Source: a virus. Taken from it: 64,000 nucleotides of DNA. The DNA is taken from the IMG/VR virus record IMGVR_UViG_3300006752_006525, positions 33,320 to 97,319 of that record, one strand, 5' to 3'. Below are positions 12,635 through 61,124 of the stretch, one piece after another. Made by a program: the position numbers and the translations under genes. How positions within the stretch are numbered: position 1 is the first letter of the stretch; every line of letters begins with the position of its first letter. The notes under the pieces are model-generated. The model had not been told where the DNA came from. It made no database searches and saw only the letters and a program-made list of their open reading frames with translations.

Positions 12635-12664
12635 AAAAAGGGCAGTTTAACTGCCCTTTTTTTT
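12635..12664. terminator. bidirectional rho-independent terminator
   Basis: AAAAA-GGGCAG-TTTAA-CTGCCC-TTTTTTTT between convergent genes (12618 + and 12668 -). Confidence 0.88.
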
Positions 12665-12667
12665 GAC

Positions 12668-12817
12668 TTAAGGATAGAAAGGATTATCTGTGATATACTT
12701 AGGCCACTCTGTTCTTTTCTCCACAGTGGGGAAACTCAAAGTTGACACTCTTTTTACTTTCTTAAGTTGTTTTTGTACAGCACGTCGAACGAGTACTGTC
12801 TCTTGATACTTAGTCAT
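12668..12817 (-). CDS. 49-aa basic peptide under tandem glutamine riboswitch (MTKYQETVLVRRAVQKQLKKVKRVSTLSFPTVEKRTEWPKYITDNPFYP), not in ORF track
   Basis: AGGAG RBS 6 nt before ATG; open frame to TAA immediately before the terminator. Confidence 0.8.
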   Translation of the reverse strand: MTKYQETVLVRRAVQKQLKKVKRVSTLSFPTVEKRTEWPKYITDNPFYP

Positions 12818-12838
12818 GTCATTCTCCTATCGGAAAAT

Positions 12839-12887
12839 GCGTTCCTTCGGCTTCATTGCCTACTTCCGTCCTTTACAGGATGAACGT
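12839..12887 (-). promoter_or_regulatory. glnA-class (glutamine-I) riboswitch aptamer 2
   Basis: ACGUUCA-UCCU(GUAA)AGGA-CGGAAGUA-GGC(AAUGAA)GCC-GAAGGAACGC. P1 CGUUC/GAACG, P2 with GNRA loop, E-loop GGAAGUA/GAA, P3. Matches the known glnA aptamer architecture. Confidence 0.85.
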
Positions 12888-12893
12888 AACAAT

Positions 12894-12943
12894 GCGTTCC
12901 TTCGTCACTATTGACTACTTCCGCCCAATGATTGGGTGAACGT
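12894..12943 (-). promoter_or_regulatory. glnA-class (glutamine-I) riboswitch aptamer 1
   Basis: ACGUUCA-CCCAA(UCA)UUGGG-CGGAAGUA-GUCA(AUAG)UGAC-GAAGGAACGC. Junctions are identical to copy 2 while the stems covary. Confidence 0.85.
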
Positions 12944-12949
12944 ATAAAA

Positions 12950-12957
12950 TATTTATC
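12950..12957 (-). promoter_or_regulatory. late promoter GATAAATA driving the riboswitch transcript
   Basis: Reverse-strand GATAAATA ends 6 nt before the first aptamer. Confidence 0.6.
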
Positions 12958-12961
12958 ACTT

Positions 12962-13288
12962 TTAGGATTCTAATTGTACGATTTTAATGGCTTCTTCTGT
13001 GCTATATGGACTTGATTCTGCCATTGGAGGCTTAGTTTCGTAGATGTTTTCATACTTTTCTACCATGTCAGCATTGATTTGTATGAATGGCTTTTCTGCT
13101 TCTGGCACATCAATCTCATCAAATATTGCATCAACAGGACATTCTGGTACACACAATCCACAATCAATACATTCATCTGGATCTATGACCAACATATTTG
13201 GTCCTTCATAAAAACAATCAACAGGACATACTTGAACGCAATGTGTGTCCTTACAGCCGACACAAGCACTAGTTACTACAAATGCCAT
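12962..13288 (-). CDS. fdxA: 7Fe (3Fe-4S/4Fe-4S) ferredoxin, FdxA type
   Basis: [43 protein letters not shown], the classic Azotobacter-type ferredoxin pattern. Confidence 0.92.
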
Positions 13289-13289
13289 T

Positions 13290-13892
13290 TTACCCCTTTT
13301 GAAATTTTGGTTTTAAGTCTATATGATACGTGCAAGAAAATACCAGTGTTCTTTTATCTGATAAGTTTGGTGTCATGCCCCATGGAATATGACTTGGCCA
13401 AAACATTACCTTTGCTGGCTTACCTCTTTTAACAACATTGGATGGTGTCACTATAGGTGGCGTAGCCCAACGTTTGTCTCCAAAGTGTTCAAAGTAAACA
13501 CTTGAACTTTTATCTGCACTCTCATCTACATCGAGGAACACTAATGCTGAATACCATCTAAGTCTTTCAGCATTGAGTGGAAAATTATGTTTAGGATTAA
13601 TTGATATAAATTTACTATTAGCACAGGTTATATCTATTTGTGCTTGATTCAACTTATAGTAATCAAAAACTTGCTGGTGAAAAACGTTGCCAAGTATCTG
13701 TACTAGTTTCCTAGTCTTGTCAACTGTGTTGTTTTCTCCTGTGATAAATCCAAAGTTAGTTTCAATTCGAGGAAGTTTTGTATCTACCTCAGTAATAATA
13801 TCAGATATCATATTGCTATCTAATTCTAGTTGTCCATCAAAAACCAAGTCTGGAAACATAGGAGTAATATTCCACCCTAGCGATTTCCTCAT
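13290..13892 (-). CDS. 2OG-Fe(II) oxygenase-like (TIGR02466-like) protein, metal ligands apparently degenerate
   Basis: DSBH-like pattern (YSALVFL…MFWPS…[10 protein letters not shown]), but the expected His ligands are not evident. Confidence 0.5.
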
Positions 13893-15805: not shown

Positions 15806-15882
15806 GCGGCTGTAGCTCAGTTGGATAGAGTATGTGGCTACGAACCACAAGGTCGGGAGTTCGAATCTTCCCAGCCGCGCCA
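15806..15882 (+). tRNA. tRNA-Arg(ACG)
   Basis: GCGGCTG/CAGCCGC acceptor stem, D arm, loop CTACGAA, TTCGAAT T-loop, encoded CCA. Confidence 0.93.
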
Positions 15883-15893
15883 AGAGGAAATGT

Positions 15894-16511
15894 ATGGTAG
15901 TTAAAAACAACAAAATTATTCTCACAGATTGTGATGGAGTCCTACTCGATTGGGAGGAGGGCTTTTCTGTTTGGATGGAACATCACGGACATGAAAAGGT
16001 AGAAGGCTATCAATACATGTATAACATTGGTGATAGGTATGGTATCACTAAAGAACAAGGTAAGAAGTCTATCAAGACATTCAATGAGAGTGCCGCCATT
16101 GGCTTCTTACCTCCCCTCAGAGATGCACAATACTATGTGAAGTTACTTGCTGAAAAACATCAGTATAGGTTTGTTGTGCTCACAAGTCTCAGTTTAGATC
16201 CTTATGCAAAAGAACTGAGAATCAGAAACCTAAACAAAATATTCGGCGACATATTCTTAGACGTCATTTGTTTAGACACAGGTGCAGACAAAGATGAAGC
16301 ACTGGACCAACTTGCTCAAAAGTACCAAGGTAACTATTGGGTTGAAGATAAACCTGAGAATGTTATGGCTGGTGTAGACAGAGGCTTTACAGGTATTCTC
16401 ATAGAGCATGGACATAACATGGGTTGGGAAGATACCTTTGTTGCTAAGAAGTGGGAAGATATCTACAATCTTGTAACAAGGAATGAAAAGCAAGAAGACT
16501 ACTCTCGGTAA
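15894..16511 (+). CDS. HAD-family 5'(3')-nucleotidase-like phosphatase
   Basis: ILTDCDGVLLDW motif I and WVEDKPEN motif IV. Start moved to 15894 because 15834 lies inside the tRNA. Confidence 0.8.
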   Translation: MVVKNNKIILTDCDGVLLDWEEGFSVWMEHHGHEKVEGYQYMYNIGDRYGITKEQGKKSIKTFNESAAIGFLPPLRDAQYYVKLLAEKHQYRFVVLTSLSLDPYAKELRIRNLNKIFGDIFLDVICLDTGADKDEALDQLAQKYQGNYWVEDKPENVMAGVDRGFTGILIEHGHNMGWEDTFVAKKWEDIYNLVTRNEKQEDYSR

Positions 16512-16740
16512 GTATCTCAAGTTTAGATTACCCACTGGAGGTGCAGGGTTGCCAGCTCAAATGCACAAGAACAAAATAGCAAAATGTGTAAGAGGTTACA
16601 CAGAACCAGTTGGTATAGATGTTAAATTTGAAACAGAAGGGTACACATTGAACGTGTATTTTGAATCAAATACGGATTTAGCACAGTTTTTATTGCTATA
16701 CAGCAACGAATACGGCAAACCCAGTGTGCTAAGTTATTGA
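16483..16740 (+). CDS. hypothetical protein
   Basis: Overlapping-operon ORF. Confidence 0.55.
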   Translation: MKSKKTTLGKYLKFRLPTGGAGLPAQMHKNKIAKCVRGYTEPVGIDVKFETEGYTLNVYFESNTDLAQFLLLYSNEYGKPSVLSY

Positions 16741-16760
16741 TTTTATTAGAGAAAAAAACC

Positions 16761-16814
16761 GGTTGACAATACACAGAAATTTGCTATACTATATGCATAG
16801 TTAGGAAATAGGAG
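16761..16814 (+). promoter_or_regulatory. early promoter cassette (TTGACA-N16-TATACT, leader ATAGTTAGGAAATAGGAG)
   Basis: Near-duplicate of the 15421 cassette. Confidence 0.8.
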
Positions 16815-16820
16815 AGCAGA

Positions 16821-17486
16821 ATGAAATTCCCAGTAATAGAAGTTATATCAACGTCTGTAGCAATACACAAAATGAATGGTGGCTTTGTAAAGACACATAA
16901 TCTTCGTGAGGAAGATGAGAGCAAAACACCAAACAGCAAATTGCTATATTCTTATTTCCTTGATTCAAAGAAGAAGCCTGATGTAACAATCACTCAGGAT
17001 GACACTAACAAGGCTATGGAGATCATTGAGTATCTCAAAGGCTTAGGCTTCAAAGCAATTGAGCGTAAGCTCACAGATTTTGAGAGCAATGTTCTCAAAT
17101 TGGTCACTGCCGAAGAGATTGGCAAAGACAAGATTGGTATTGCCGCTAGTTTACCTAAGGTATACCAAAACAAACTTGATCAAGATACTTGGTCTGTACG
17201 TGAGAACGAACTTGCTAACCAAAGTGAATTCGAGGGCGAGTTGCACAAAAGAGGTAACTTTGAACTCACAGTTGAGAACGTGAGGTACATTGCTTCAGTT
17301 GGTAGCACACTGTTCTGCACTTGCTCATCTAAGGGCAACATTGTCAAGTTCTTTAATGACAATGAACGCAAAATCAAAGTGGGCGACAAGATTCATGTTA
17401 CAGGTTACATCAAGTCTCATGAAGAAAGCAAGTATCATGGCGGTAAGGAAACTATGATCAATCGTATAAAATATTGCGATAAGTAA
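16821..17486 (+). CDS. early protein with possible C-terminal OB-fold
   Basis: C-terminal KVGDKIHVTGYIKSH…KETMINRIK resembles OB-fold strands. Confidence 0.55.
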   Translation: MKFPVIEVISTSVAIHKMNGGFVKTHNLREEDESKTPNSKLLYSYFLDSKKKPDVTITQDDTNKAMEIIEYLKGLGFKAIERKLTDFESNVLKLVTAEEIGKDKIGIAASLPKVYQNKLDQDTWSVRENELANQSEFEGELHKRGNFELTVENVRYIASVGSTLFCTCSSKGNIVKFFNDNERKIKVGDKIHVTGYIKSHEESKYHGGKETMINRIKYCDK

Positions 17487-17496
17487 AAATTTCCGG

Positions 17497-17524
17497 TTGA
17501 CACATAGTACAGTTCCTGTATAAT
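17497..17524 (+). promoter_or_regulatory. sigma70-like promoter TTGACA-N16-TATAAT
   Basis: Consensus hexamers upstream of the peptidase and tRNA array. Confidence 0.75.
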
Positions 17525-17553
17525 TAACAAATATTCACAAGAGGTATTCAACC

Positions 17554-17973
17554 TTGAACATTGGCATTGAAGGTCCACGAGGCGGTAAAGTTGATTTAGG
17601 TTTACAGGCGTATGCTACTCTGGCTGTACGCAGTTTTGCCCAGCAACTTGGCATTAGCCGTTTGAAGACAAACATTGTGGTGCGTTTGCACAACAGGATT
17701 CATGTTGGTGACTTTGGTACTGAAGGTTTATGCGAGAGCATCGACAATCGTAATTTTGTAATTGATGTTGCTCTGTTTGGCAACTGGCTGAGCATACTTG
17801 CACACGAAATGGTGCATGTAAAACAGTTTGCTCGTGATGAGATGGACGCAGGTCTTACTCGTTGGAAGAGCAACCACTATGCAGGCAACATTGATTATTG
17901 GGACCAGCCCTGGGAGAAAGAGGCTCGTAAATTGCAACACAAGATGGTTGCAGAATTTGACAAACTAGATTAA
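17554..17973 (+). CDS. small zincin-like metallopeptidase
   Basis: LAHEMVHVKQ (HExxH) and downstream PWEKEA glutamate motif; TTG start. Confidence 0.75.
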   Translation: MNIGIEGPRGGKVDLGLQAYATLAVRSFAQQLGISRLKTNIVVRLHNRIHVGDFGTEGLCESIDNRNFVIDVALFGNWLSILAHEMVHVKQFARDEMDAGLTRWKSNHYAGNIDYWDQPWEKEARKLQHKMVAEFDKLD

Positions 17974-17979
17974 GTTTAT

Positions 17980-18056
17980 GCGCCTGTAGCTCAACCGGAT
18001 AGAGCATCGGCCTTCTAAGCCGAGGGTTGCAAGTTCGAGTCTTGCCAGGCGTGCCA
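17980..18056 (+). tRNA. tRNA-Arg(TCT)
   Basis: GCGCCTG/CAGGCGT stem, loop CTTCTAA, TTCGAGT T-loop, CCA. Confidence 0.93.
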
Positions 18057-18260
18057 AAGAAGTGAGTGAGTTGAAAACAGTAGACTGCATTCACATAAAG
18101 TGTAGTAAAAGTTAAGAAGAGGGTAATAGTTAGAGGGCAAGAAAGGACGGCTAGTTGGCGGTGGCAAGAGAAGACCACAGGAGTTTAGATTTAGTCGTGA
18201 TGTGCAATAACCTATCATACAGGTTGCGGGGTCCTTTCGATTATTTTGTAAAAAGTATAT

Positions 18261-18348
18261 GCCTGAGTGGTGAAATTGGTAGACACAAGGGACTTAAAAT
18301 CCCTCGCCTGTAATGGGTGTGCCGGTTCGAGTCCGGCCTCAGGTACCA
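18261..18348 (+). tRNA. tRNA-Leu(TAA)
   Basis: Long variable arm, loop CTTAAAA, GGTTCGAGTCC, CCA. Confidence 0.93.
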
Positions 18349-18357
18349 TTTTAATTA

Positions 18358-18434
18358 GGGCCCTTAGCTCAGTTGGTTAGAGCATCCGACTCATAATCGG
18401 CAGGTCGTTGGTTCAAATCCAACAGGGCCCACCA
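18358..18434 (+). tRNA. tRNA with CAT anticodon, most likely Ile2 (lysidine) type
   Basis: GGGCCCT/AGGGCCC stem, loop CTCATAA. Body resembles bacterial tRNA-Ile2; lacks the initiator C1:A72 mismatch and GGG/CCC anticodon stem. Confidence 0.85.
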
Positions 18435-41749: not shown

Positions 41750-42850
41750 ATGGACCTACAAGTAAAACCCAGTTCAGTTACTAATATTGTAAACAGAGCG
41801 TTTGAAGCAAAAAGACCTGTCTTTTTGTGGGGAGCACCTGGTATTGGTAAATCAGAACTTATTGAGCAAATTACTGAGTCTCTCGGTAATTCCACAATGA
41901 TAGACATGCGTTTGGCACTTATGGAGCCAACTGATTTGCGTGGCTATCCTTTCCGTAACCCAGAAACAAATACCATGGAGTGGGCTCCTCCAGCAGACTT
42001 GCCTACGCAAGAATTTGCGGCACAATACGATAATGTTGTATTGTTCTTAGACGAGCTCAACTCTGCACCACCAAGTGTACAGGCGGCGGCTTACCAACTT
42101 ATCCTAAACGGCCGAGTTGGTCAATATGAGTTGCCAAGTAACACTCTCATTATTGCGGCAGGTAACCGTGAGACAGACAGAGGTGTTACATACCGTATGC
42201 CAGCACCGTTGGCTAACAGGTTCCGTCATATTAATATGGCAGTTGACTTTGGTGATTGGCAGAAGTGGGCACTTAACAATAGCATCCACCAGGATGTAGT
42301 TGGTTACCTTTCATATGCCAAGCAGGATCTTTTTGACTTTGATCCTAAAACAAGTTCACAGGCATTTGCTACTCCTCGTTCATGGAGTTATGTAAGTGAG
42401 ATGTTGAACGTTGCTTCATTCGACGAGGCATCTATCTCAGAGCAAAAGGCTGAGATTGCAGGTGCAGTTGGTGAGGGAATGGCTGGTAAGTTTATTGAGC
42501 ACAGACGTATCTCAGGTAAACTACCCCACCCATCCGACATTATGGATGGTAAAGTCAAGAAACTTAATGAGGATATTTCCAGAGAAATCTCTGCCAAGTA
42601 TTCCTTAGTTGTCGGTCTCACCTACGAGATTGCAGAATTGCACAAAGAAAACAAAGGTGGTAAGGAGTTCCAGACTGCCTTTAACAATGCTGTAAGGTTT
42701 GCATACGATAACTTTGAGCCTGAAATGGTTATCTTATTGTTCAAGACAATCATGACAGACTACAAGATTAAGTTCAATATCCGAACAGATCTAGACAAGG
42801 ATGTGTACAAAGTGTTCTCTGAGAGATACACCAAGTACATTGTAGATTAA
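41750..42850 (+). CDS. MoxR-like AAA+ ATPase
   Basis: WGAPGIGKS, EPTDLRG.P, LFLDELN, AAGNR, PLANRF, TPRSW. Confidence 0.88.
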   Translation: MDLQVKPSSVTNIVNRAFEAKRPVFLWGAPGIGKSELIEQITESLGNSTMIDMRLALMEPTDLRGYPFRNPETNTMEWAPPADLPTQEFAAQYDNVVLFLDELNSAPPSVQAAAYQLILNGRVGQYELPSNTLIIAAGNRETDRGVTYRMPAPLANRFRHINMAVDFGDWQKWALNNSIHQDVVGYLSYAKQDLFDFDPKTSSQAFATPRSWSYVSEMLNVASFDEASISEQKAEIAGAVGEGMAGKFIEHRRISGKLPHPSDIMDGKVKKLNEDISREISAKYSLVVGLTYEIAELHKENKGGKEFQTAFNNAVRFAYDNFEPEMVILLFKTIMTDYKIKFNIRTDLDKDVYKVFSERYTKYIVD

Positions 42851-42856
42851 TCAGTT

Positions 42857-42927
42857 TTAGCACTGGGCACCTACTACTCCTCCTACCTAACTGTCTCAGT
42901 GCTAATCGACCCCTCTTCGGAGGGGTC
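42857..42927 (+). ncRNA. candidate structured RNA: long stem with 22-nt G-free anti-SD loop, then a C(UUCG)G hairpin
   Basis: UUAGCACUGGGCA/UGUCUCAGUGCUAA stem around CCUACUACUCCUCCUACCUAAC, then GACCCCUC-UUCG-GAGGGGUC. Confidence 0.55.
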
Positions 42928-42942
42928 ACCCTTTAATAAATA

Positions 42943-42990
42943 GGTTGACAAACAGGCATTATTTGCTATAATAGTTGTATTAGTTAGGAG
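42943..42990 (+). promoter_or_regulatory. early promoter TTGACA-N16-TATAAT with TAGTTAGGAG leader
   Basis: Consensus hexamers, extended -10 TG, shared leader motif. Confidence 0.8.
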
Positions 42991-42996
42991 AACTTC

Positions 42997-44289
42997 ATGA
43001 GCAAAGATATTAAAAAAGCGGCATCCGAAGTAGCAGATGTAATCATACCAGAAACTACAAAGACTTCTGCACAAATCGAAGACACACTGATCGGCTCTCG
43101 TATTAAAATGCTGATTAACCAGCCCTTTTTTGGTAACCTAGCAACTAGGTTACACTTTGTTGACGCCACTGCTTGGTGTCCCACATTGGCTACTGACGGT
43201 AGAAACTTTTATTACAACCGTAACTTTGTTGCCGCACTTAGCGACGAAGAAGTAGTGTTTGGTTTTGGTCATGAAGTTCTCCATTGTGTATATGATCACA
43301 TGAACAAGGACATGATTGGTAATAGAGATCGTAGACTTTGTAACATTGCACAGGACTATGTTATTAACGCAGACCTTATTGATGCTGGTGTTGGTGAACA
43401 GATCAAGTTAGTTCAAATATGTCATGATTGGAAGTATCGTGGAATGCACTGGATGGAAGTGTATGACGAACTGTTCCGTCAGGCTGAAGAAGAAGGTCGT
43501 GTTATTGAGGTTGGTACACTTGATATGCACATGGACGGCATGGACCAAAATGGTGGCGAAGGCAATGATGCACCAGGTGAAGGTAACAACGATGGTTCAG
43601 AAGGTCCTATTCAATACAGCGATGACGAGATGGAGACTATCAAGAACGAAATGCAAAATGCTGTGGTGAATGCCGCTAAGGTTGCAGGTGCAGGTAACTT
43701 GCCTGCAGGTGTTAAGCGAATGCTGAAAGACTTGTTGAATCCTCAGTTAGACTGGCGTGAACTACTTGCAATGCAAATCCAAAGTGTTATCAAAAGTGAT
43801 TACACATTTGGTGTCCCTTCACGTAAGGGTATGGACGCAGGCATTTGGTTACCTGGTATGGATCGTGAAACAACAATTGATGTTGCTATTGCATTAGACA
43901 TGTCAGGTTCTATTATGGACGAGATGGCACGTGACTTCCTTTCAGAAGTAAAAGGTGTTATGGATCAGTACACAGACTTCAAGATACACTTGTTCTGCTT
44001 TGACACTGAAGTACACAATCCGCAGAGTTTCACACAAAACACTATGGAAGAGTTCATGGAGTATGAACTTGCTGGTGGTGGCGGTACTGAGTTTGATTGC
44101 TGTTTCAACTACTTGAAAGACGAAGGCATTGTGCCTAAGAAGTTTATTATGTTCACAGATGGTTACCCTTGGAGTAGTTGGGGCGACGAGTCCTACTGTG
44201 ACACACTGTTTGTTGTACATGGTGGCGGCTATGGCGAGCCTCCTGTAGCACCGTTTGGTATCACTGTTCCATACACAAGAGAGGATTAA
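42997..44289 (+). CDS. metallopeptidase-like + VWA domain protein (MoxR partner)
   Basis: TLATDG…GHEVLH (HExxH) and C-terminal VWA with DMSGS, GGGGT.F, MFTDG. Confidence 0.85.
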   Translation: MSKDIKKAASEVADVIIPETTKTSAQIEDTLIGSRIKMLINQPFFGNLATRLHFVDATAWCPTLATDGRNFYYNRNFVAALSDEEVVFGFGHEVLHCVYDHMNKDMIGNRDRRLCNIAQDYVINADLIDAGVGEQIKLVQICHDWKYRGMHWMEVYDELFRQAEEEGRVIEVGTLDMHMDGMDQNGGEGNDAPGEGNNDGSEGPIQYSDDEMETIKNEMQNAVVNAAKVAGAGNLPAGVKRMLKDLLNPQLDWRELLAMQIQSVIKSDYTFGVPSRKGMDAGIWLPGMDRETTIDVAIALDMSGSIMDEMARDFLSEVKGVMDQYTDFKIHLFCFDTEVHNPQSFTQNTMEEFMEYELAGGGGTEFDCCFNYLKDEGIVPKKFIMFTDGYPWSSWGDESYCDTLFVVHGGGYGEPPVAPFGITVPYTRED

Positions 44290-48618: not shown

Positions 48619-49284
48619 TTACTTGTACCCTATTTGCATAAAACGAGTGTACACAGGCGTTTTTAAGGCGCCTACGTAACGTGTATTGCTTAATGGGTAC
48701 TTAGATTGCATATCATCTATGCTTTGACAAGTGTTTATATGGCCATTAAAATCAGGTGAGTCGTTGGTTTGCATGACTATTAGTTGCTCGTTACTAGCAG
48801 TTTCAAACCAACTTGTATCCATGTGTTCACAACTGGTATTGATAACTACGTTTGGTGTAACTTCTATCAGTTCGCCACCTGTTTGAAACTCCATATTATC
48901 TGTGGACAGCATCGATACATCAGCAACGACACCTTTATATTTCCAAGAATTTTCGACATATCGTCTATTGAATATTTCGCTTTTGCTAACTGCAACTGGA
49001 TCTACATCAAACCCATACAATCTTTCTATGCTAAACGAATCGTGAAGCAGTGGTACCAAACTACCAATCCAACAACCTAACAATGCCCATGTGGTGTTAG
49101 ATTCAATTGGTACCACTTGTAAACAGTTCTTTAACCATATTTTGCTTGCCATTTGTCCTAGACTGAATGCGTCTTTTGGGTACAGTTGACTATTAACTAA
49201 CTCTAGATAACTAGGCTTAAAAGAACCTAATTCATCACACCAATCTCTTACTTGGTCCCATGATTCTAGATTGACATTACTCAT
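48619..49284 (-). CDS. class I SAM-dependent methyltransferase-like protein
   Basis: DAFS.GQ..SK.WL, LLGCW.G, FDVDP, VINTSCEHM. Confidence 0.7.
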   Translation of the reverse strand: MSNVNLESWDQVRDWCDELGSFKPSYLELVNSQLYPKDAFSLGQMASKIWLKNCLQVVPIESNTTWALLGCWIGSLVPLLHDSFSIERLYGFDVDPVAVSKSEIFNRRYVENSWKYKGVVADVSMLSTDNMEFQTGGELIEVTPNVVINTSCEHMDTSWFETASNEQLIVMQTNDSPDFNGHINTCQSIDDMQSKYPLSNTRYVGALKTPVYTRFMQIGYK

Positions 49285-52200
49285 TGTCTTCTTTGTAACG
49301 GTTCTCTAGCCATTCGTAGTCGTTGATTTTAGCAAGTCTTACAGGCTTATTGATATTCTCTTTTGCATACACTGTGCCTGCTTGGGCTCCTGCTCTTGCG
49401 GCTTCTTTGAACTCAGCATCTTTAGCAGGGTTCATCCATTGAGATAGTCTTTGTATGCTGTCTTGATCTGCATTCACTGTTAACTTAACACACTCTCTGA
49501 ATGCACCACGCCATGTAGAGAACTCGTCTGTGTTAAATTTAGTTGTACTTGCAACTTCAGGCATTGCTTTGAACCTACTGCTAAGTCCTGTTGTAAAGTC
49601 TAGTCCCCAACTTGTAGCATCTAATACTTGTTTGGTGTTAAACAACTTGATACCACCATAACCATATTCAGTGCCTGTGATTGGATTACGTGCAAGCCAT
49701 ACATGTACAACTTCTTGGTCGTACACATCAGGTATGTACGAGAAGTCAAACTCATCGTCAACCATGCTGTCTGCATCAACTACCCAGAACATTGAGGTAC
49801 CTACTTGCTTTGCGGCTTCTTGGTGTGCTGAGAATATTCCGTCGATGTCTCTTACCCATAGTGCATTAGGGAACCTTGCTTGTAGACGCTTATATGCGTT
49901 CTCAGCATAGGTTTCGTGGTAGGAAAGGAACACAATATCATATGATTTATACGTGCTACCCGGCTCTCTAACATACTGTAGACCACGAATCTTGTTTAAG
50001 AATATCTGATCTGTTGTTAAACTAGCATAGTCTTTGTTAGTAGGCCACAGGCGTAATCCACCATAACTGTGTGTCTTTTGTGTATGCGGATTGAGTCTTT
50101 GCCATACGTGAACTTTGTCTATGTTGTTCAATTGTGGCATAAAACTATCATCAATTACTTCTGTGTACACATCAACATCTGTGTCTGTTGTCCAAGCAAA
50201 CGAATGCCCTTGCTCTTTGTGTTCATTAATTTGTTTGACAAACTCATCTCTGTCTGTAACAGTTGCCATATCAATAATAGGAAATGCTGTTGTTGTACTT
50301 GCTACAATATCTACTTGCTTTAAGTTGGCAAAACTGTTGTTTGTTACTTCTTTTATACCTAAGCCATGCTTACCTGCAAAGGTTCCTTTAGGTACAAGTC
50401 TAACGTTTCTGTATTCATCTTGTGCTGAACGGAACACATGAACTGTTTTCTCTTCCCATTTGTTTGGTGAGAACTTATAGTTCCAGCCTGGGAATCGTTT
50501 GGTAAACGGATCAATTAGCCAGTACATACTGCTTGTACACTTCTTATCAAACTGTTCTGCCTGCTTGATGTAATCGTGTGCAGGATCAATAACACACATT
50601 TCAAATATGCGTTGTGTACTACCTACTTCTTCTAACAGCAATTGATTCTCAATCTCACTGGTACGAAGCATTTCGTCTGTGAGCTGTTTGGTAGGCTTGA
50701 AACTAGTTGGGAACAATCTTAGACCACCATAGCCGGCTACTTTACCATCCTCTTCGTTAACACGTTGCCAAACATGTACACGATCGTGATTATCAAGTTT
50801 AGGAGAATAACTGCTGTAAATTAATGCACGTTTTTCTTCTACGTCTGGATCAATAACCCAAACATAGTCTGAGCTTTTGTGTTTTTCAAGTATCTCTTTG
50901 AGCTCACCAACTGTGACATCTGTAAATCTTTCCACTGGCCATAGACTTGGTTTTACATTGATAGTGTCTAGCACTTTCAAAGGTGTAAAACTGTTGTTCG
51001 CTATATCTTCTACAGACATGTCGTTTGGATATGTCTCTTTGGGGTATAGTCGCACATAGCGATTTTGGTTTGTGGTTTCAAACACATGCACAGTTGATTT
51101 GTCCCACTGATTTGGCAAGTAATGAAGTTCTTCCTCATTGATTTCTACACCTGGATCTATCACCCAATACATGCCTGCTTCAGTCTTAACATCAAAGTCA
51201 TTTAACTGCGTAACCATTGCTTCGCTGTCAGTGATTTGATATACTGGATAAGTGTTTAACACACTGCCTGGTTCTTCTATGTAACGTTGTGATTCACAAT
51301 CACTTGTTACTAATTGTTCTGTTGTTACTTCATCTAAATCAAAGTTTGTAGGCCATAAACGCAATCCAGCATAGTTAATAATGCTGTCTTCTTTGTCTAC
51401 ACACTGCCATACATGTACTTTGGTTGGATCAATTGGCATATTAAATAACTGTGGGTTGCCGTCCGGACTATATAGTTCTCCCATAACCGTACTCTTGGCT
51501 TGAACATCCGGGTCTACACTCCATATGTATTTGTGTCCTTGTTCTTTATAACTGTTCAACAATGAACGCATTTTTTCCACAGTTACATCTTCCCACTTAG
51601 TGAACTTGTGTACCAACCAACTTTCTTGTACACTGGCAACTTGGTCTATAAGTTTAATATCAGGGAAACTGTTATAACTTACATCGTCTGCTGTAAATCC
51701 ATGTTCACCATGGAATAAGTGTGTAGGATATAGTCTTACATTTCTGTATGTTCCTGCATTAGTACGGAATACATGAACTGTGTTTATATCCCACCTTGTT
51801 GGGTAGTAATCAAACTCAAAGCCAGGTTCTAGCACTGTGAATGGATCAACTGCCCAAAACATTTCTGCTTTACATTCTCCTGCAATGTTTTCCAACTGTG
51901 TAATAATATCTGTTGACATATCCAAGTTCCAAACAGGAATAGTTTTCTGTGTACAACCTGGTTCATCCATATACTCACAGTTTTTAACATCGTTCAAACG
52001 TAATTGGTCTGTGGTAATACCACCTACATTAAAATCTGTACTCCATAGTCTAACACCGGAGTTACTGAGAACTTCTCCTTTATCGTTTACACGTTGGTAA
52101 GCAACAACTTTGCCGGAGAAGTTTGTTGTTTGTTCTTGATTAAGTGTTTGCTTAAACACTTTGGTAATTGCTTTTACATCTGGATCTACGGTCCAAACAT

Positions 52201-54343
52201 AAGGCACACTGTTGTTCTTGTGTGATGCTAATATTTTACCTAGCTCTGCAACGTTAAACTTCTCAAATTCAACAACAGGATATGTAGGTAACTTACTTGC
52301 CACTGTAGGCATTTCTTTAAGGTATTGAAAACTGTTATAGCGATAGTCTTCTTCAGAATACATGTGAATACCTGGTTCAAATGTATCCTTAGGAACAAGT
52401 CTAACGTCTCTGTATTCTTGCTTTTCGTTTTGGAATACATGAACTTTGTCTATGTCATATTGCGTAGGGTAGTAATCAAAGTTAAAGTCCTCTGCAGGTT
52501 CTACACCTGGGTCCAGCACCCAATACATTTTTGTTTGTGTTTTATCATCAAACTCTTCCAATTGACTAATAAGACCTCTGTTTGTTTTCAAATGGTATAC
52601 AGGATATTCTCTCTGCGTACTAGCAGGTGCCATAACAAATTTAGGTCTGCCCTTACTGGTTTTATTTTTAGGGCATAACATGACTCCACCGTAATCATAT
52701 TGCTTGTTTGTAACAGGATTTAGTTTTTGCCACGTGTGATTTTTACCCGAGTCATTGATGTCTGGTAACCAATCAAAATCAAATGTGTCTAATACAACAA
52801 CATCAGGATCAACTACCCAGAACCAATCATGTTTAGTACGAGCTCTACCTTCACTTTCTGTAGAGAAAATTTCATACCTCACAAACTCAATATCACTGCT
52901 ACCCAAGTTACCTTGATACTTTGCACTGCTAGGATCATACTGCTTAGGAACTAACTTGGCACCACCACAGCGATTATCACTTACATTTTTAATCTCTAAC
53001 GGATACTTGTGGCTTAACTGCCCAGGTACTTTGAATATGTTTATGTAACGTTGATCGTATATAGCAGGAACGTACTTGATAAAGTTATCTACTAACTGAT
53101 ACTCTTCATCCACTAACCAAAATGCATCTGTGTGACTTTTACGTGCATACTTCTCATAGTTTGTTAAATCTTCATGCGGCACATAAAAGATATCATATCT
53201 CACAGGCACAATGTCAGTGTGCAGTTTCTGTTGTGTGATATCAAAGTTTTTATTGACTAGATATATACCACCAACACGTTCGTCCCACAGTTCTGTTACT
53301 TCAGGATCATATCTATCTTCTAATCCCCATTTGAATACATGTATATATTCTTGCTCGTGTTCTGCAGGTACATATAAAAGTTTACCGTTGAAGTCATATG
53401 TTCTATCAACTACCCAAAACCAATCAGTACCGGCACGTTCAGCATAATGATCAAATGTATCTGCATCAAACTTTCTGTTTGTGTAAAATACATCATAGTT
53501 CTCATCTTCTATAGGACAATCTTTGTGTATCTTTACAGGTGCATTTTTCCATTGCTTTGGTACTAAACGTATACCTCCCATTGCCATAGGATACTTTTCG
53601 TTTAATTGATACGGCATACGGAAACTGTGAACCATATCACGTTCAAAAGGATTAGGTACCCAGTCAACATCACCTGGATTTACTCTGTATTCTTTGTCAA
53701 TTAACCAAACGTACTCGTCATTAAACGTATCACGTTGGCTGTAGTTGTCTACATCTTCTACATATAATACAGGATAGTCAACTACATTGTTCAAGAAGCC
53801 ATGATACTTCATGTGTGCTTTCTTGTGATCTCTTGGGAATAATTTTACACCTCCCTCACTCTCAGGATACAAATGTTCTAGTTGACCTTTCAAATGGAAA
53901 CTGTGAATAAAGTTAGGCTCAAAATTACCTGGTGCCCAATCAATATCATCTGTTAATACATACTCAGGATCTACACACCATACATGACTTGCATGTGGGT
54001 TCTGATCAAAATACTTACCAGGTGTTTTCTTACGCAACACTTCAAATGTTCTTTTACATACAACTCTGTTGACTTGTTTTGTTTCTTCTTCTGGATTTTT
54101 GCTGGGTATTAATCTAAGACCACCATAGTTACCTCTGTCCCATTTGAATACATGCTCATACTTGTGATCATAATCATTTGGTCTGAATTCAAAGATGCCA
54201 TAGTCTGTTACTTCGATACTAGGCTCTACTAACCAAAACATTTTTGTACGTGGATTAATATCTTCGAGACTTTCTACCTGCTTTGCAACAGGCAAATCCT
54301 CTTTTAATTTTTCATTTGAACCTAGGTAATAAATGTCAAACAT
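49277..54343 (-). CDS. 1688-aa protein built of ~15 tandem GT-A-like glycosyltransferase modules
   Basis: Repeating W(V/L)(V/I)D(P/A)D…(F/Y).P…VHV(F/W)…(Y)GG..L.P unit; full-length terminal domain with DAD. Confidence 0.65.
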   Translation of the reverse strand: MFDIYYLGSNEKLKEDLPVAKQVESLEDINPRTKMFWLVEPSIEVTDYGIFEFRPNDYDHKYEHVFKWDRGNYGGLRLIPSKNPEEETKQVNRVVCKRTFEVLRKKTPGKYFDQNPHASHVWCVDPEYVLTDDIDWAPGNFEPNFIHSFHLKGQLEHLYPESEGGVKLFPRDHKKAHMKYHGFLNNVVDYPVLYVEDVDNYSQRDTFNDEYVWLIDKEYRVNPGDVDWVPNPFERDMVHSFRMPYQLNEKYPMAMGGIRLVPKQWKNAPVKIHKDCPIEDENYDVFYTNRKFDADTFDHYAERAGTDWFWVVDRTYDFNGKLLYVPAEHEQEYIHVFKWGLEDRYDPEVTELWDERVGGIYLVNKNFDITQQKLHTDIVPVRYDIFYVPHEDLTNYEKYARKSHTDAFWLVDEEYQLVDNFIKYVPAIYDQRYINIFKVPGQLSHKYPLEIKNVSDNRCGGAKLVPKQYDPSSAKYQGNLGSSDIEFVRYEIFSTESEGRARTKHDWFWVVDPDVVVLDTFDFDWLPDINDSGKNHTWQKLNPVTNKQYDYGGVMLCPKNKTSKGRPKFVMAPASTQREYPVYHLKTNRGLISQLEEFDDKTQTKMYWVLDPGVEPAEDFNFDYYPTQYDIDKVHVFQNEKQEYRDVRLVPKDTFEPGIHMYSEEDYRYNSFQYLKEMPTVASKLPTYPVVEFEKFNVAELGKILASHKNNSVPYVWTVDPDVKAITKVFKQTLNQEQTTNFSGKVVAYQRVNDKGEVLSNSGVRLWSTDFNVGGITTDQLRLNDVKNCEYMDEPGCTQKTIPVWNLDMSTDIITQLENIAGECKAEMFWAVDPFTVLEPGFEFDYYPTRWDINTVHVFRTNAGTYRNVRLYPTHLFHGEHGFTADDVSYNSFPDIKLIDQVASVQESWLVHKFTKWEDVTVEKMRSLLNSYKEQGHKYIWSVDPDVQAKSTVMGELYSPDGNPQLFNMPIDPTKVHVWQCVDKEDSIINYAGLRLWPTNFDLDEVTTEQLVTSDCESQRYIEEPGSVLNTYPVYQITDSEAMVTQLNDFDVKTEAGMYWVIDPGVEINEEELHYLPNQWDKSTVHVFETTNQNRYVRLYPKETYPNDMSVEDIANNSFTPLKVLDTINVKPSLWPVERFTDVTVGELKEILEKHKSSDYVWVIDPDVEEKRALIYSSYSPKLDNHDRVHVWQRVNEEDGKVAGYGGLRLFPTSFKPTKQLTDEMLRTSEIENQLLLEEVGSTQRIFEMCVIDPAHDYIKQAEQFDKKCTSSMYWLIDPFTKRFPGWNYKFSPNKWEEKTVHVFRSAQDEYRNVRLVPKGTFAGKHGLGIKEVTNNSFANLKQVDIVASTTTAFPIIDMATVTDRDEFVKQINEHKEQGHSFAWTTDTDVDVYTEVIDDSFMPQLNNIDKVHVWQRLNPHTQKTHSYGGLRLWPTNKDYASLTTDQIFLNKIRGLQYVREPGSTYKSYDIVFLSYHETYAENAYKRLQARFPNALWVRDIDGIFSAHQEAAKQVGTSMFWVVDADSMVDDEFDFSYIPDVYDQEVVHVWLARNPITGTEYGYGGIKLFNTKQVLDATSWGLDFTTGLSSRFKAMPEVASTTKFNTDEFSTWRGAFRECVKLTVNADQDSIQRLSQWMNPAKDAEFKEAARAGAQAGTVYAKENINKPVRLAKINDYEWLENRYKEDNE

Positions 54344-54626
54344 CTTTGCTTCTCGTTTCCTGTATGTGTTTTAATTTGTCTATCCTTTCCTCAATCATGC
54401 TAAAAAGTTGTTCGTTTTCCATTTGTGTTTTGGCAACTGTCTCAACTAAATTATGTAACTTTTGCTGTTGATCGGTAATGTATTGCTTAATGTTTCTAAG
54501 TTTTCTATTTACTATATTTACTTCATATAGGCTACAATGAACCGAGTGTTCTGGCAGTACAGCACTGCATTCCAAACATCTGCCCTCTAATATTTTTTGT
54601 ACTGTGTCTAATTCTTCTTCAGTCAC
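54336..54626 (-). CDS. hypothetical protein with CxxC…HxxxC and coiled coil
   Basis: CLEC…HSVHC. Confidence 0.6.
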   Translation of the reverse strand: MTEEELDTVQKILEGRCLECSAVLPEHSVHCSLYEVNIVNRKLRNIKQYITDQQQKLHNLVETVAKTQMENEQLFSMIEERIDKLKHIQETRSKDV

Positions 54627-55329
54627 TGATCCAATTCCATAACTTCAAATCTTCTGAGCATAATTGTTCACATACTGTATTCACTGTGTTTGTTTGATGT
54701 TGTGCAGGAAAGCCTTCTGGGAAATGTTCATACTTTGTAGACTCGTTGGCCCTCACTATTTCACGTTCTTGCATACCTAAATGATCATGAATTAATTGCA
54801 CTACATCATCACCATCTCCCCACTTGGTAAATGAAAACGTATCGTCAGTCCATTCCATGTATTCCATGAAGTCGAGTACTCTAGCATTCATAACCCAATT
54901 ACGTTTACCAAACCTTTTAGTTGCTATATACTCTTTTCTAATAGGTATTTGTCCTATTTGAGGATGTATGTGAGAGTCTACTGCACTTGGTAAATGTGTA
55001 AACAATGCAACATTACTAACACTGTATCCATAATCTCTGCGAATGTTAGCAGTAAAATGATCTATTTGACTGCGGAGTCTATGGTAAGGATTTCTAAGAA
55101 AGATATGAAAATGCTGTGGTTGTGTTAAATCCTCATAATCCTTATCTGGCATCACTGCCCACTCACCTGGAATATTTCTCGATGCACTGGTACTACCGCC
55201 TTTGGCAAATGTCACCATAAAGTTGCCGTCATTGTGGTATATGTTACCCCAATATGGATCTTCATGATCAGGAAACTCCAGTTGTCTGTGTTCCCAAGCC
55301 AAATAAGAGTATGCGTCTTGCATCTTCAT
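54619..55329 (-). CDS. sulfotransferase (family 2-like)
   Basis: AKGGSTS (5'-PSB), FLRNP..RL.S (3'-PB), H..PQ. Start reassigned to the ATGA overlap at 55329. Confidence 0.6.
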   Translation of the reverse strand: MKMQDAYSYLAWEHRQLEFPDHEDPYWGNIYHNDGNFMVTFAKGGSTSASRNIPGEWAVMPDKDYEDLTQPQHFHIFLRNPYHRLRSQIDHFTANIRRDYGYSVSNVALFTHLPSAVDSHIHPQIGQIPIRKEYIATKRFGKRNWVMNARVLDFMEYMEWTDDTFSFTKWGDGDDVVQLIHDHLGMQEREIVRANESTKYEHFPEGFPAQHQTNTVNTVCEQLCSEDLKLWNWISD

Positions 55330-56108
55330 GTTGCTAACCTCCATAGTATAGTGTCTTCTTTGTAAATTGTTTGTTGACCACACCATGGTGCAAAGTCAGG
55401 TATTTCTTCAGCAACAAACGTTGTCCTATCGCCGTACCAGTTATCTTTTCTATACACATCTTTAAGAACTGTAGGATCTATACCTACACATTCTAAGAGA
55501 AAATTATTTACAGCATTATCAGTTTTCATTTTATAAAATTTATAATGATCGGGTCCTGCAAGTATACTGTCAACTACATTTAAGTCCTTGAGAATAAACT
55601 TCCAATCCACAAGTTCATGCAAAGACTGATGATGGAAGTCGCCTAGCTCTTCGCACCTAGACAGTATTGTTCTGTATAGCTCACTGTTTTTGCGGAAAGG
55701 TATTAAACAATGTTGAGGTGCAGAATGAATATTAATAACTTTATGAAAGTGTGAAAAGAATTCATGCGGTACTGGCCCTAGGCCCCACATGGTTTTTATT
55801 TCTCTGTGAGCATGGTTTATTACACTGGCAAGTCTTTCTACAGGTTCTCTGACCAATGCACAAAATGTTTGTGGTTGTTTTAAGTCACAGTCTGGATTCC
55901 TAGGAACTGAACCAAGCTCATCCATATTCAGTGTGCCTAGTATACTTGTTTGACATGCTTTTGTTATACGAACTATCCACTTATCCAGTATAGGATCTAT
56001 GTCTAGTGGTCTGTCGCTGTAAAGTATTTCTGATTCTCGCGGACTACTGCGATAATTTGATACCATGTGATAAACAGTGGTAAACTCTTGTTGCAGTTGA
56101 ACAGACAT
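55326..56108 (-). CDS. sulfotransferase (family 2-like)
   Basis: ITKACQTS, LVREPVERL.S, HSAPQ. Confidence 0.6.
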   Translation of the reverse strand: MSVQLQQEFTTVYHMVSNYRSSPRESEILYSDRPLDIDPILDKWIVRITKACQTSILGTLNMDELGSVPRNPDCDLKQPQTFCALVREPVERLASVINHAHREIKTMWGLGPVPHEFFSHFHKVINIHSAPQHCLIPFRKNSELYRTILSRCEELGDFHHQSLHELVDWKFILKDLNVVDSILAGPDHYKFYKMKTDNAVNNFLLECVGIDPTVLKDVYRKDNWYGDRTTFVAEEIPDFAPWCGQQTIYKEDTILWRLAT

Positions 56109-57629
56109 TTAATCGTCTCTGCAATGAACTGGTACTCCATAGTGTTTAGAAAAGTCAATTGCTTCTTGTTCTGTGTTCACTATAGGTTGTCCTTTGATAT
56201 TCAACGATGTGTTTACAATCATTGGACACCCAGTTGCATCATAAAAACGACTCAACAACCTAAACAACTCAGGGTGATCGAGTTGATTAACTGTTTGTAC
56301 TCTGCTGGTTCCATCAGCATGTACAATAGCAGGAAACTCATCTGGCTTTTTGCATTTAGCAGTGTATTGCATGTAAGGAGCACTCAACATGTCTCCCGGC
56401 ATTTCAAAATAATCTCTGGCATGATGTTGTAAAATCATAGGAGCAAAAGGTCTAAACTTTTGACGCTTCTTGATTACATTCATACGGTCTTTGATCTCTG
56501 CACCACGTGGGTCAGCACATAAACTTCTGTTGCCTAATGCTCTAGGTCCATACTCTGCACGACCATTAGCAATACCAAATATTTCGCCATTTAATAGACT
56601 GTTTAATGCTTTGTCTACAGGGTACTTACCTGGAATCTCTGTGCCTAAATAGGGTGTAAATCGTTCTAGTCTGCGACCTGTATGCTTGTGATAATGTAAT
56701 GCGGCGGCTCCTAAACTGCTACCTGCATCACCTGGGTTAGGCATAATGTGTACTTTATCAAAGTATTCAAACAGTCTACTGTTTGCAACACAATTTAATG
56801 CTACACCACCCATGTATACCAAGTTCTTAGAACCTGTTAACTTCTTTGCTTTCTCTGCATAAGCAAATATCTTATTCTCTACTACTGCTTGGGCACTTGC
56901 GGCTAAGTCATAGTCTAAACTGTAATGACCCCATTCATCTTTATTCTCTTGCAGATGCCTACCAGTAACTTTCTGTTCTAATCCACGTTGTAGATTGCGT
57001 TTGGTTTTGAGACTATTCTTGCCTTTGAACAATCTATTTTCTAACCTTTCTGTGTATGCGGCTTGCCCATAAGCGGCCATACCCATTAATATATACTCAT
57101 CTTCCATAGGCTTTAATCCTACGTGAGATGTCATAGCACTATAAAACAATCCTACTGAATTAGGAAACCAAACACTGTGCTTCTTCTTTAATTTATTGTT
57201 TTGCCAATGCCAAATAGTTGCTGTGTCAAACTCGCCTATGGCATCTATAACCATAACAGCACATTCGTCAAATTCGCTAGTCATAACACCAGCGGCGGCA
57301 TGTGTTTCATGATGCCAATACTCTTTGATAGGTATGCCTGCTAGTTGTGGATAGAACTCTTTGATCCACTGCTTGGTGTCTAATTCTTTTAGTGCAGACC
57401 AATTGCCTGCGTAGATGTTTCTAGCACGTTTTGCCCATGACTTTTCATGTAGTGCTATGACATCAGGTCGCCCATAACCTAATGCCTCAGAAACTATATT
57501 CTGATTGAGGAAAGCATCGTTCTTTATTCTGCTGTATCTTTCTGCATGACCTGCAAATAAAATATTACCGTTGTCTATAACACTGATCGAAGCATCATGA
57601 AACTGGCTACTAATACCAAGTACTTTCAT
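56109..57629 (-). CDS. NodU/CmcH-family carbamoyltransferase
   Basis: HDAS, ERYSRIKND, HHETHAA, DAIGE, MGMAAYG, GGVALNCVAN, GDAGSS.GAA, EYGPRALGNRS, FRPFAP, HADGTSRVQTV, NTSLN. Confidence 0.95.
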   Translation of the reverse strand: MKVLGISSQFHDASISVIDNGNILFAGHAERYSRIKNDAFLNQNIVSEALGYGRPDVIALHEKSWAKRARNIYAGNWSALKELDTKQWIKEFYPQLAGIPIKEYWHHETHAAAGVMTSEFDECAVMVIDAIGEFDTATIWHWQNNKLKKKHSVWFPNSVGLFYSAMTSHVGLKPMEDEYILMGMAAYGQAAYTERLENRLFKGKNSLKTKRNLQRGLEQKVTGRHLQENKDEWGHYSLDYDLAASAQAVVENKIFAYAEKAKKLTGSKNLVYMGGVALNCVANSRLFEYFDKVHIMPNPGDAGSSLGAAALHYHKHTGRRLERFTPYLGTEIPGKYPVDKALNSLLNGEIFGIANGRAEYGPRALGNRSLCADPRGAEIKDRMNVIKKRQKFRPFAPMILQHHARDYFEMPGDMLSAPYMQYTAKCKKPDEFPAIVHADGTSRVQTVNQLDHPELFRLLSRFYDATGCPMIVNTSLNIKGQPIVNTEQEAIDFSKHYGVPVHCRDD

Positions 57630-57632
57630 GTA

Positions 57633-57830
57633 TTACCTATATATGAAAGGATCGCGTTTACGCAATTCTTCTATTTTCTTCTTGAGTTTTTCCTCGTCTG
57701 ATAAAGGAACATCTTCCCCTGTGATAGGTTTAACTTCCTCACCATCCTCGTCTATACCGCGATTGCCATCGCCATTGAACTCAGTAAGGTCCTGTTGCTT
57801 GTGCTTATAATTCTTTTCGTCTTCAGTCAT
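57633..57830 (-). CDS. small protein ending ELRKRDPFIY
   Basis: AGGAG RBS; AATAAATA late promoter at 57850-57857 (-). Confidence 0.7.
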   Translation of the reverse strand: MTEDEKNYKHKQQDLTEFNGDGNRGIDEDGEEVKPITGEDVPLSDEEKLKKKIEELRKRDPFIYR

Positions 57831-57869
57831 TGGGCATCTCCTGTGCTAATATTTATTTGGTAATTATTC

Positions 57870-58760
57870 CTAATTATAAATAATCCGGTTGCCGGATCTT
57901 AGCATTCTTGTATATTCTTTTTGATTTTCTTCTGTAAGTGTGCCTGCATTGTATTCTGGTAATTGATATAATTGTTGTGTTTCAAAGCAATGCTCTGCTA
58001 ATTCTCCAGCGGCTCTGAACTGCGTTATGTGCCCTTGGTGCGATAGATCTCTGGCTAAAAAATTACTGATATCTATTTCATCAAGCGATACAGTTTGTAT
58101 GTTATATTTCACATAACGATTAATACTGTGATCATCAAAGTAACTCCACAACCTAACAGGTATACCCCAAGCATTAAAATGATCAACTAAACTGTTGATT
58201 GTATCTCCAAGATGTAGTTCTTGTGTTGTATCGTGTTCTGATATCTGTTGTTCTTCAGTTGTCATTGTGGTTATCCAAGTATCATGCGATACTCCCTCAA
58301 TGTCTGTGTATCCTTGTTGGAGAGTTGATGTGGTCTTGCGACTTATATCAGGTATTTGAATTACAACTATGTCAGGCTTTGCAAAATACTTACACCATTC
58401 CTTTGCTACAAGACTAACTGCTAATATGCCATGGCTTTCACAGCCTAAGTTAACAAAGTCTTTGTTGACCAAACGACCTAACTCAGCATGCCATGTGTCT
58501 TCTGCTTTAACACCTACACCATATGTGTGACTGCAACCTAATGCTAAACCAAAGTTCTTGGTATAACTTTCAAAAGGCTTTGAGCGAAAACCATGATTAT
58601 TATTAACATAACTGATGTCAGCATTTTTATAATATGAATGTAACCTGTCATAGTTTTCTTCAAATGCTTCTTTGCTGTCTGTGCTGATAAACTCTTTGGT
58701 TACATTGATCTTGTCCAGCATTTTAGGAAACTGATCAGGAAAGTATGCTAAAGTAGCCAT
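57870..58760 (-). CDS. SGNH/GDSL-like hydrolase/acyltransferase
   Basis: N.HGFRS, LGCSHTYG, NLG, ARDLSH (DxxH). Confidence 0.7.
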   Translation of the reverse strand: MATLAYFPDQFPKMLDKINVTKEFISTDSKEAFEENYDRLHSYYKNADISYVNNNHGFRSKPFESYTKNFGLALGCSHTYGVGVKAEDTWHAELGRLVNKDFVNLGCESHGILAVSLVAKEWCKYFAKPDIVVIQIPDISRKTTSTLQQGYTDIEGVSHDTWITTMTTEEQQISEHDTTQELHLGDTINSLVDHFNAWGIPVRLWSYFDDHSINRYVKYNIQTVSLDEIDISNFLARDLSHQGHITQFRAAGELAEHCFETQQLYQLPEYNAGTLTEENQKEYTRMLRSGNRIIYN

Positions 58761-61097: not shown

Positions 61098-61124
61098 ATA
61101 CTCTATCTTTTGTGTGTAATAACA

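Follow-up and report, generated by a model that had tools for sequence, protein, structure and literature searches.

What use would a virus have for a glutamine sensor whose only output is one very small peptide? The window, the 64,000-nucleotide stretch of viral DNA analysed here (positions 33,320 to 97,319 of IMG/VR record IMGVR_UViG_3300006752_006525), contains a reading frame of 49 codons behind what an earlier note, made from the letters alone, took for two glutamine aptamers. We found this locus to be a monocistronic unit, in which a promoter motif, tandem type-1 glutamine aptamers, a hairpin that hides the Shine-Dalgarno sequence, the gene for the 49-amino-acid peptide and a terminator follow one another. 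To our knowledge, riboswitches with a tiny trans-acting protein as their only output are rare, and the one studied case that we know of is cyanobacterial: a glutamine riboswitch that acts through IF17 on glutamine synthetase (GS). In the present unit, this class of sensor is joined to a peptide of unrelated sequence that is under strong constraint and is found in SAR86, an uncultured heterotroph that ranks among the most abundant in surface ocean waters, and in giant phages linked to SAR86.

Architecture of the unit and its proposed switching

All elements that the earlier note had described, that is the stems and junctions, the ribosome-binding site, the residue counts and the terminator, were found in place on the minus strand (Table 1), and its description of a self-contained unit holds from the promoter motif through to the terminator. 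The arrangement is not a product of chance, because it recurs in 32 of the 33 related viral loci and in the seven bacterial loci for which upstream DNA is available.

Table 1. Elements of the riboswitch-peptide unit in the order of transcription (window coordinates)
Feature	Position	Strand	Remarks
GATAAATA, T4-type late-promoter-like motif	12950-12957	minus	7 nt before P1 of aptamer 1
Glutamine aptamer 1 (RF01739)	12891-12944	minus	cmscan 54.5 bits, E 3.2e-9, model positions 1-53
Glutamine aptamer 2 (RF01739)	12836-12888	minus	cmscan 61.8 bits, E 3.1e-11, model positions 1-53; 2 nt after aptamer 1
Expression-platform hairpin CAUUUUCC-GAUA-GGAGAAUG	12820-12839	minus	MFE structure; followed by AC, then ATG
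Ribosome-binding site AGGAG	12824-12828	minus	6 nt before ATG
49-codon ORF, MTKYQ...WPKYITDNPFYP	12668-12817	minus	ATG 12815-12817, stop TAA 12668-12670
Bidirectional intrinsic terminator hairpin	12635-12661		6 nt after stop; shared with convergent fibre gene ending at 12618

The claim of a tandem glnA-class riboswitch passed comparison with Rfam: in a cmscan search, both aptamers are full matches to the covariance model RF01739, well above its gathering score of 35 bits, and they are the sole matches to this family in the 97-kb viral record. Upon comparing the two copies, we noticed that their junctions (ACGUUCA / CGGAAGUA / GAAGGAACGC) are identical, whereas the stems differ in sequence yet stay paired, with CCCAA/UUGGG in P2 of one copy against UCCU/AGGA in the other, and GUCA/UGAC in P3 against GGC/GCC. 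Thus, the three-stem junction of RF01739 is recognizable in its conserved nucleotides (CGUUCA / CGGAAGUA / GAAGGAACG) and in its variable but paired P2 and P3 stems. The linchpin cytosine is present as C12839, which follows GAACG and is the first base of an 8-bp anti-Shine-Dalgarno arm. On these features, the riboswitch is an ordinary member of RF01739, and both of its aptamers are predicted to bind L-glutamine. The structure of a type-1 glutamine riboswitch is credited to Ren et al. 2015, as cited in PMC6212724.

Two features of the related leaders are absent from the window. Many phage and bacterial aptamers (leaders L004-L044) have an extended P2, for example UUCACUCUAAAUGUAGCAGUGAA and CGCCACUCUAAAUGUAGAGCGACG, that is capped by a nearly invariant loop, CUCUAAAUGUAG(C); the conservation of this loop suggests an extra tertiary contact or binding site. 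Most related phage leaders (L003-L035) also contain an extra 5' hairpin of the GUAAC-GCAA-GUUAC type between the late-promoter motif and aptamer 1. This hairpin is missing from the window and from L010, L015, L017 and L019, in which transcripts would begin nearly at P1.

The expression platform directly adjoins the second aptamer. Its 5' arm begins at the C that immediately follows P1 of aptamer 2, and its 3' arm contains the Shine-Dalgarno sequence GGAG (12824-12827). The predicted fold has a free energy of -9.7 kcal/mol (z -3.8), and none of 200 shuffled sequences was equally stable. We observed an equivalent hairpin of 5-9 bp, likewise starting at the C after the proximal P1 and holding the Shine-Dalgarno sequence in its 3' arm, in all 33 unique leaders from phages and bacteria. 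The usual pairing among them is CAUCU(UU)/(GG)AGAUG; the window's CAUUUUCC/GGAGAAUG differs by the exchange of a C-G for a U-A pair and by additional pairs, and L017 (CAAUCU/AGAUUG) by one inserted A-U pair. Covariation in this helix is thin, amounting to that one exchange and one inserted pair among 33 leaders that are mostly close kin.

The leader of gifB, the IF17 gene of Synechocystis, belongs to the same RNA family and also precedes the gene of a small regulatory protein (Klaehn et al. 2018, PMC6212724). In the model proposed for it, the ribosome-binding site is paired with the C after P1 and with the bases downstream of this C, and glutamine drives formation of a G23-C60 pair that melts this helix, implying a translational switch that glutamine turns on (PMC6212724). 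Because the window's nucleotides directly 3' of P1 are arranged in the same way, an ON switch is the best reading of its platform, which by analogy favors the glutamine-ON control suggested in the earlier note. As long as glutamine is scarce, CAUUUUCC, the eight nucleotides that adjoin P1 of aptamer 2 on its 3' side, would pair with GGAGAAUG and hide the ribosome-binding site. Upon binding of L-glutamine, C12839 would be pulled into the aptamer's long-range G-C 'linchpin' pair, with a G in CGGAAGUA as its partner; the short helix attached to P1 would then melt and the peptide would be translated. By the same analogy, the peptide is most likely made only when glutamine is plentiful, and the upstream aptamer probably sharpens the response. 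We also considered the tail of aptamer 1 as a second anti-Shine-Dalgarno element, which would create AND logic. We rejected this as a general feature, as CAUCU occurs at that place only in the bacterial and about six phage copies and not in the window.

At the upstream end of the unit lies the promoter motif. T4 late genes are preceded by promoters with the consensus TATAAATA, which lies within a few nucleotides of the transcription start, on its upstream side. The window motif GATAAATA agrees with this consensus at seven of eight positions and is a putative late promoter, and the peptide would then be expressed late. In each of the 26 unique phage leaders, aptamer 1 is preceded at a distance of 6-24 nt by a [GT]ATAAATA motif, often directly after a terminator; the seven bacterial leaders have sigma-70-like -10 boxes, and none of them has this motif. 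The same motif is found 8-75 nt upstream of five other same-strand ORF starts in the window, both fibre genes included. Across the whole window, KATAAATA is not enriched (10 found versus 8.1 expected).

At the other end, directly after the gene, a GC-rich hairpin is followed by a U run, as in intrinsic terminators; the hairpin is stable (-16.7 kcal/mol, z -4.8) and flanked by A and U runs. Phage and bacterial copies without exception have a GC-rich, terminator-like hairpin that begins 4-10 nt past the stop codon. Since this hairpin is found in every copy and the next gene in the window is convergent, we regard the peptide as the sole output of the riboswitch.

The peptide family and its phage and bacterial carriers

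The window peptide contains 11 K/R and 4 D/E among its 49 residues and has relatives at 33 loci in IMG/VR, at 40-78% identity. In a collection of 5.8 billion proteins, we found 13 close clusters; a profile search returned 133 protein clusters and an exhaustive HMMER search 29 representatives. The family alignment starts with a conserved MTKYQ and continues into a basic helix, in which R12, A13, V14 and L18 are each conserved at 90% or more. A variable middle, 10-25 residues long, separates this helix from the tail, (E/D)(L/W)PxY[IV]TDNPFYP, of which PxY[IV]TDNPFYP is invariant among the aligned relatives; more distant members end in ...LPxYI(T/A)(N/K)NPWY. With the family alignment as input, AlphaFold2 predicts a helix for residues 3-25 (pLDDT 92-94) and an unstructured, flexible tail (about 60).

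At the level of DNA, the invariant tail is far from fixed. In 32 distinct coding sequences, most of its positions are encoded by two to four synonymous codons, such as ACA, ACT, ACC and ACG for Thr, CCT, CCC, CCA and CCG for Pro, GAT and GAC for Asp, and TTC and TTT for Phe. Because the residues stay the same while their codons vary synonymously, the constraint acts on the protein. This pattern marks the uncalled ORF of the earlier note as a real, conserved gene under purifying selection. As described below, the gene is also a constant companion of the aptamers.

The earlier note had recognized no family for the peptide, and our searches agree. Pfam contains no match to the window peptide at E<=0.01 and none to 34 family members at E<=10, and searches of PHROGs, NCBIfam and PDB profiles with the peptide or its relatives were empty or at chance level. 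In the ESM Atlas, the best structural match scored 0.89, below the 0.9 taken as a lead. A profile match to a 1246-amino-acid protein (P0130) was spurious, as this protein is a junk translation full of repeats in which KITDNPFQ occurs by chance. We also looked for extended versions of the peptide and for fusions and saw none, which is weak evidence. Among 50,697 deposited phage genomes, tblastn of the peptide gave no match at E<=10, and blastn of the 401-nt unit against deposited phage genomes returned nothing.

The peptide gene and the aptamers travel together. Two RF01739 aptamers lie directly upstream of the gene in 28 of the 33 viral loci and one in four more; the remaining locus is cut 45 nt upstream of the gene, with the 3' end of an aptamer still visible. 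Every copy of the peptide with enough upstream DNA thus stands behind glutamine aptamers. Scanning genomes with the pattern YITDNP[FY]Y, we found one cellular copy, at a contig end in a MAG labelled 'uncultured Gammaproteobacteria', beside pssA, ilvC and ilvH. That MAG belongs to a SAR86-type gammaproteobacterial order, and a search of the order showed that 8 of 266 genomes carry the peptide unit in their chromosomes, in one case on a 1.62-Mb contig; a 400-genome sample of the class yielded no further carriers. All seven bacterial loci with available upstream DNA have tandem RF01739 aptamers, and the bacterial copies stand alone, with the same platform and terminator as the phage copies. One of the bacterial peptides is identical to an NCBI protein from a 'SAR86 cluster bacterium'. 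Over about 190 nt, the module DNA of bacterial and phage copies is 74-86% identical. The riboswitch-peptide-terminator cassette is common to phages and SAR86-type bacteria.

We read the phage version as a host-type cassette that was placed under a T4-type late promoter, and the shared cassette is the one observation that suggests SAR86 as the phage host. The diversity among phage copies far exceeds that among the eight bacterial ones, so that transfer could also have run from phage to bacteria.

The phage itself differs from what the cyanobacterial framing of the earlier note would imply. The window encodes tail fibres, a family-B DNA polymerase, a MoxR/VWA pair, a ligase, four tRNAs, a ferredoxin and a 2OG-Fe(II) oxygenase. 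Its DNA polymerase is 41-42% identical to those of jumbo myoviruses of 350-490 kb (for example Atu_ph07, Serratia phage BF and Xanthomonas phage XbC2), and CheckV estimates the 97-kb record to be 27% complete. By these genes, the phage is an uncultured jumbo myovirus and not a cyanophage. With the cellular copies residing in SAR86-type gammaproteobacteria, the framing of a cyanophage and its host is not supported.

Nitrogen genes of the carriers and possible roles of the peptide

In the SAR86-type order, RF01739 matches score above the cut-off in 64 of 151 genomes, where they precede gltB, canonical glnA, a GS-like gene of about 330 amino acids and a porin-like outer-membrane gene; the GS-like gene follows a long leader that contains a hairpin of its own. 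This placement ahead of nitrogen-assimilation genes assigns the cassette to a nitrogen regulon, and the matches together outline a sizeable predicted glutamine-riboswitch regulon in a heterotroph. Canonical GlnA (TIGR00653 above cut-off) is limited to 7 of 266 genomes of the order, and glnA follows RF01739 in G246, G249, G250 and G251, which are among these few. Most genomes of the order encode only divergent GS-family proteins, of about 465 or about 330 amino acids. The peptide carriers have no canonical GlnA; five of the eight have a GS-family protein of 464-471 amino acids that scores about 200 bits against a cut-off of 429. In the five carrier genomes tested, GlnE adenylyltransferase was found in none and two PII genes in each.

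The same clade also encodes YRG-repeat (DUF4278-like) peptides behind a variant leader that resembles a glutamine riboswitch. One such leader (L096:366-560; G226:C2:64666-64860) precedes a YRG-type peptide that starts MTTKYRGVEV... and matches RF01739 weakly, at 26.9 bits; a large insertion separates its junction elements. The layout recurs in G003 (L090). It appears to be a variant glutamine riboswitch that escapes standard cut-offs.

Taking these observations together, we consider it probable that the window contains a late-gene unit of a jumbo myovirus in which a tandem riboswitch turns on a trans-acting peptide, whose most likely effect would be to impose a 'nitrogen-replete' response on the host late in infection. 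The phage would run the shared cassette from its own late-promoter motif, and the peptide itself would be the output. Its C-terminal nine residues (YITDNPFYP), which are invariant, resemble a motif for docking on a host protein. We infer both the action in trans and a nitrogen-related target. Our working model is a small trans-acting regulator that would dock via its NPFYP tail on a nitrogen-related host protein, with the GS-like enzyme and PII as equal, unproven candidates. We keep this model because of the PII, GlnE and GlnA content of the carriers, and because the clade has separate YRG peptides to which the window peptide is unrelated. A search for mimicry of a host motif found DNPFYP-coding DNA in five carrier genomes only within the peptide gene.

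Put more broadly, and only tentatively, the NPFYP-tailed peptides may be new glutamine-induced regulators of nitrogen assimilation in heterotrophic SAR86-type bacteria, that is functional counterparts of IF7/IF17 with unrelated sequence and possibly another target. A lineage of jumbo phages would have captured both sensor and effector and rewired them to a late promoter, so as to reset host nitrogen metabolism according to the glutamine level during virion production.

A narrower version holds that the peptide is a functional analogue of IF7/IF17, which is made at high glutamine and binds and inhibits the host's GS-type enzyme. The earlier note had named GS inhibition and a nitrogen-dependent infection checkpoint as possible roles, and both are speculative. 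The analogy is appealing, as the same riboswitch class drives gifB/IF17 in cyanobacteria (PMC6212724) and the window peptide combines small size and a basic character with a flexible tail. The absence of GlnE from the five carrier genomes tested means that a covalent off-switch of GS is missing there, as it is in cyanobacteria. We nevertheless think this version unlikely. The window peptide shares with the IF17-like 'YRG' peptides of DUF4278 (PF14105) the property of being a small peptide made under a glutamine riboswitch, but it has no sequence or profile similarity to them. An hhalign comparison of its family with PF14105-matching YRG peptides of the same bacterial order gave a probability of 0.2% (E 0.25), the NPFYP tail that is the hallmark of the window family is absent from DUF4278, and the earlier note's link to IF17 is thus not recognizable in the peptide. 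A single YRG(V/I)xY unit occurs in the variable middle of a minority of relatives, and the window peptide has none. The clade's separate YRG-type peptide is the more natural counterpart of IF17. Canonical GS, the target that the earlier note had in mind, is also a poor fit, because the carrier bacteria possess a divergent GS-family protein only. A complex prediction for two copies of the SAR86 GS-like protein with the cognate peptide, run without controls, returned a score of 0.01 (mark 0.32) and speaks neither for nor against binding.

Alternatively, the peptide may act like small PII-binding regulators and target another hub of nitrogen signalling, for instance AmtB, GOGAT or either of the two PII proteins. 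The two PII genes in all five tested carriers would provide a partner, glutamine riboswitches head gltB and the porin-like gene in the order, and a linear motif that is invariant and C-terminal would be well suited to bind in a conserved pocket. Against this, we found no motif or family link to known PII binders, and, taken as a specific assignment, such a target seems to us improbable.

We also weighed whether the ORF might act in cis, as a leader or ribosome-arrest peptide whose invariant NPFYP-stop stalls the ribosome and thereby governs the terminator or a gene that follows. The most conserved block is indeed formed by the last 9-11 residues and ends in Pro-stop, and the terminator hairpin starts only 4-10 nt past the stop codon. 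Such a device would have nothing downstream to regulate, as the next gene in the window is convergent and the bacterial copies stand alone; moreover, the N-terminal helix (MTKYQ, RAV, L18) is conserved too, and the unit already has a dedicated sensor. These points make stalling very unlikely.

Gene order around the cassette bears on the remaining alternative. In related contigs (L003, L005, L030-L035), a fibre gene (+) is followed by the cassette (+), a 2OG-Fe(II) oxygenase gene (-) and an orf225 homologue (+). The window cassette is inverted relative to these phages, and a gene for a 2x[4Fe-4S] ferredoxin (12962-13288) has been added between it and the oxygenase gene (13290-13892), which lies next to the module both in the window and at seven or more related loci. 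Synteny shared by members of a single lineage accounts for the adjacency of cassette and oxygenase in phages. That the neighbouring enzyme modifies the peptide after translation, for example by hydroxylation of Pro, Asn or Asp, is scarcely credible even though the invariant C-terminal core presumably resembles that of cofactor-type precursor peptides, because the bacterial copies have no oxygenase neighbour and the orientation differs between loci.

Relation to known systems and further observations in the window

Several parts of this picture have precedents. The glnA RNA motif, tandem copies included, was first described by Weinberg et al. 2010 (PMC2864571), and it resembles the window element in being tandem, marine and tied to nitrogen genes. 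The genes associated with the motif in that work are PII, GS, GOGAT, ammonium transporters and PMT1479; the window peptide family is not among them. Phage glutamine riboswitches have been reported for cyanophage S-CREM1 and others (PMC9964418) and for the OM43 phage Melnitz and pelagimyophages (PMC9004378). As in the window, these are RF01739 elements encoded by marine myoviruses. By contrast, the controlled gene is not identified or said to be tmRNA in these reports (PMC9964418, PMC9004378), whereas the window has a defined, conserved peptide gene as the sole output. PMC12379486 briefly mentions RF01739 in SAR86 MAGs. From gifB, the window unit is set apart by its two aptamers, by its owners, a jumbo phage and SAR86-type bacteria rather than a cyanobacterium, by a product that is not DUF4278/IF17, and by its promoter, a phage late-type motif where gifB is NtcA-controlled. 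We found no paper that describes the peptide family or ties this peptide to a glutamine riboswitch. Tandem and phage-borne glutamine riboswitches are thus already published; the peptide family and the non-cyanobacterial owners are new.

Finding the partner of the peptide would tell how these streamlined bacteria, most of them without canonical GlnA and GlnE, turn off or divert nitrogen assimilation, and what a phage gains by copying their glutamine signal. It would also provide a compact, portable cassette for glutamine-inducible expression.

Elsewhere in the window, we noticed several other groups of genes. Four tRNA genes (Arg-ACG, Arg-TCT, Leu-TAA and Met-CAT) lie at 15806-18434, and in L011 and L029 a similar tRNA trio precedes the cassette by about 2.7 kb. 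The minus strand carries a long co-directional block at 49277-61142, with a 1688-amino-acid ORF, several ORFs without a family match and, at 56109-57629, a carbamoyltransferase gene (PF02543/PF16861). A MoxR-type ATPase (phrog_1297) and a DUF2201 metallopeptidase/VWA protein are encoded as a pair at 41750-44289, as reported for some cyanophages such as S-CREM1.
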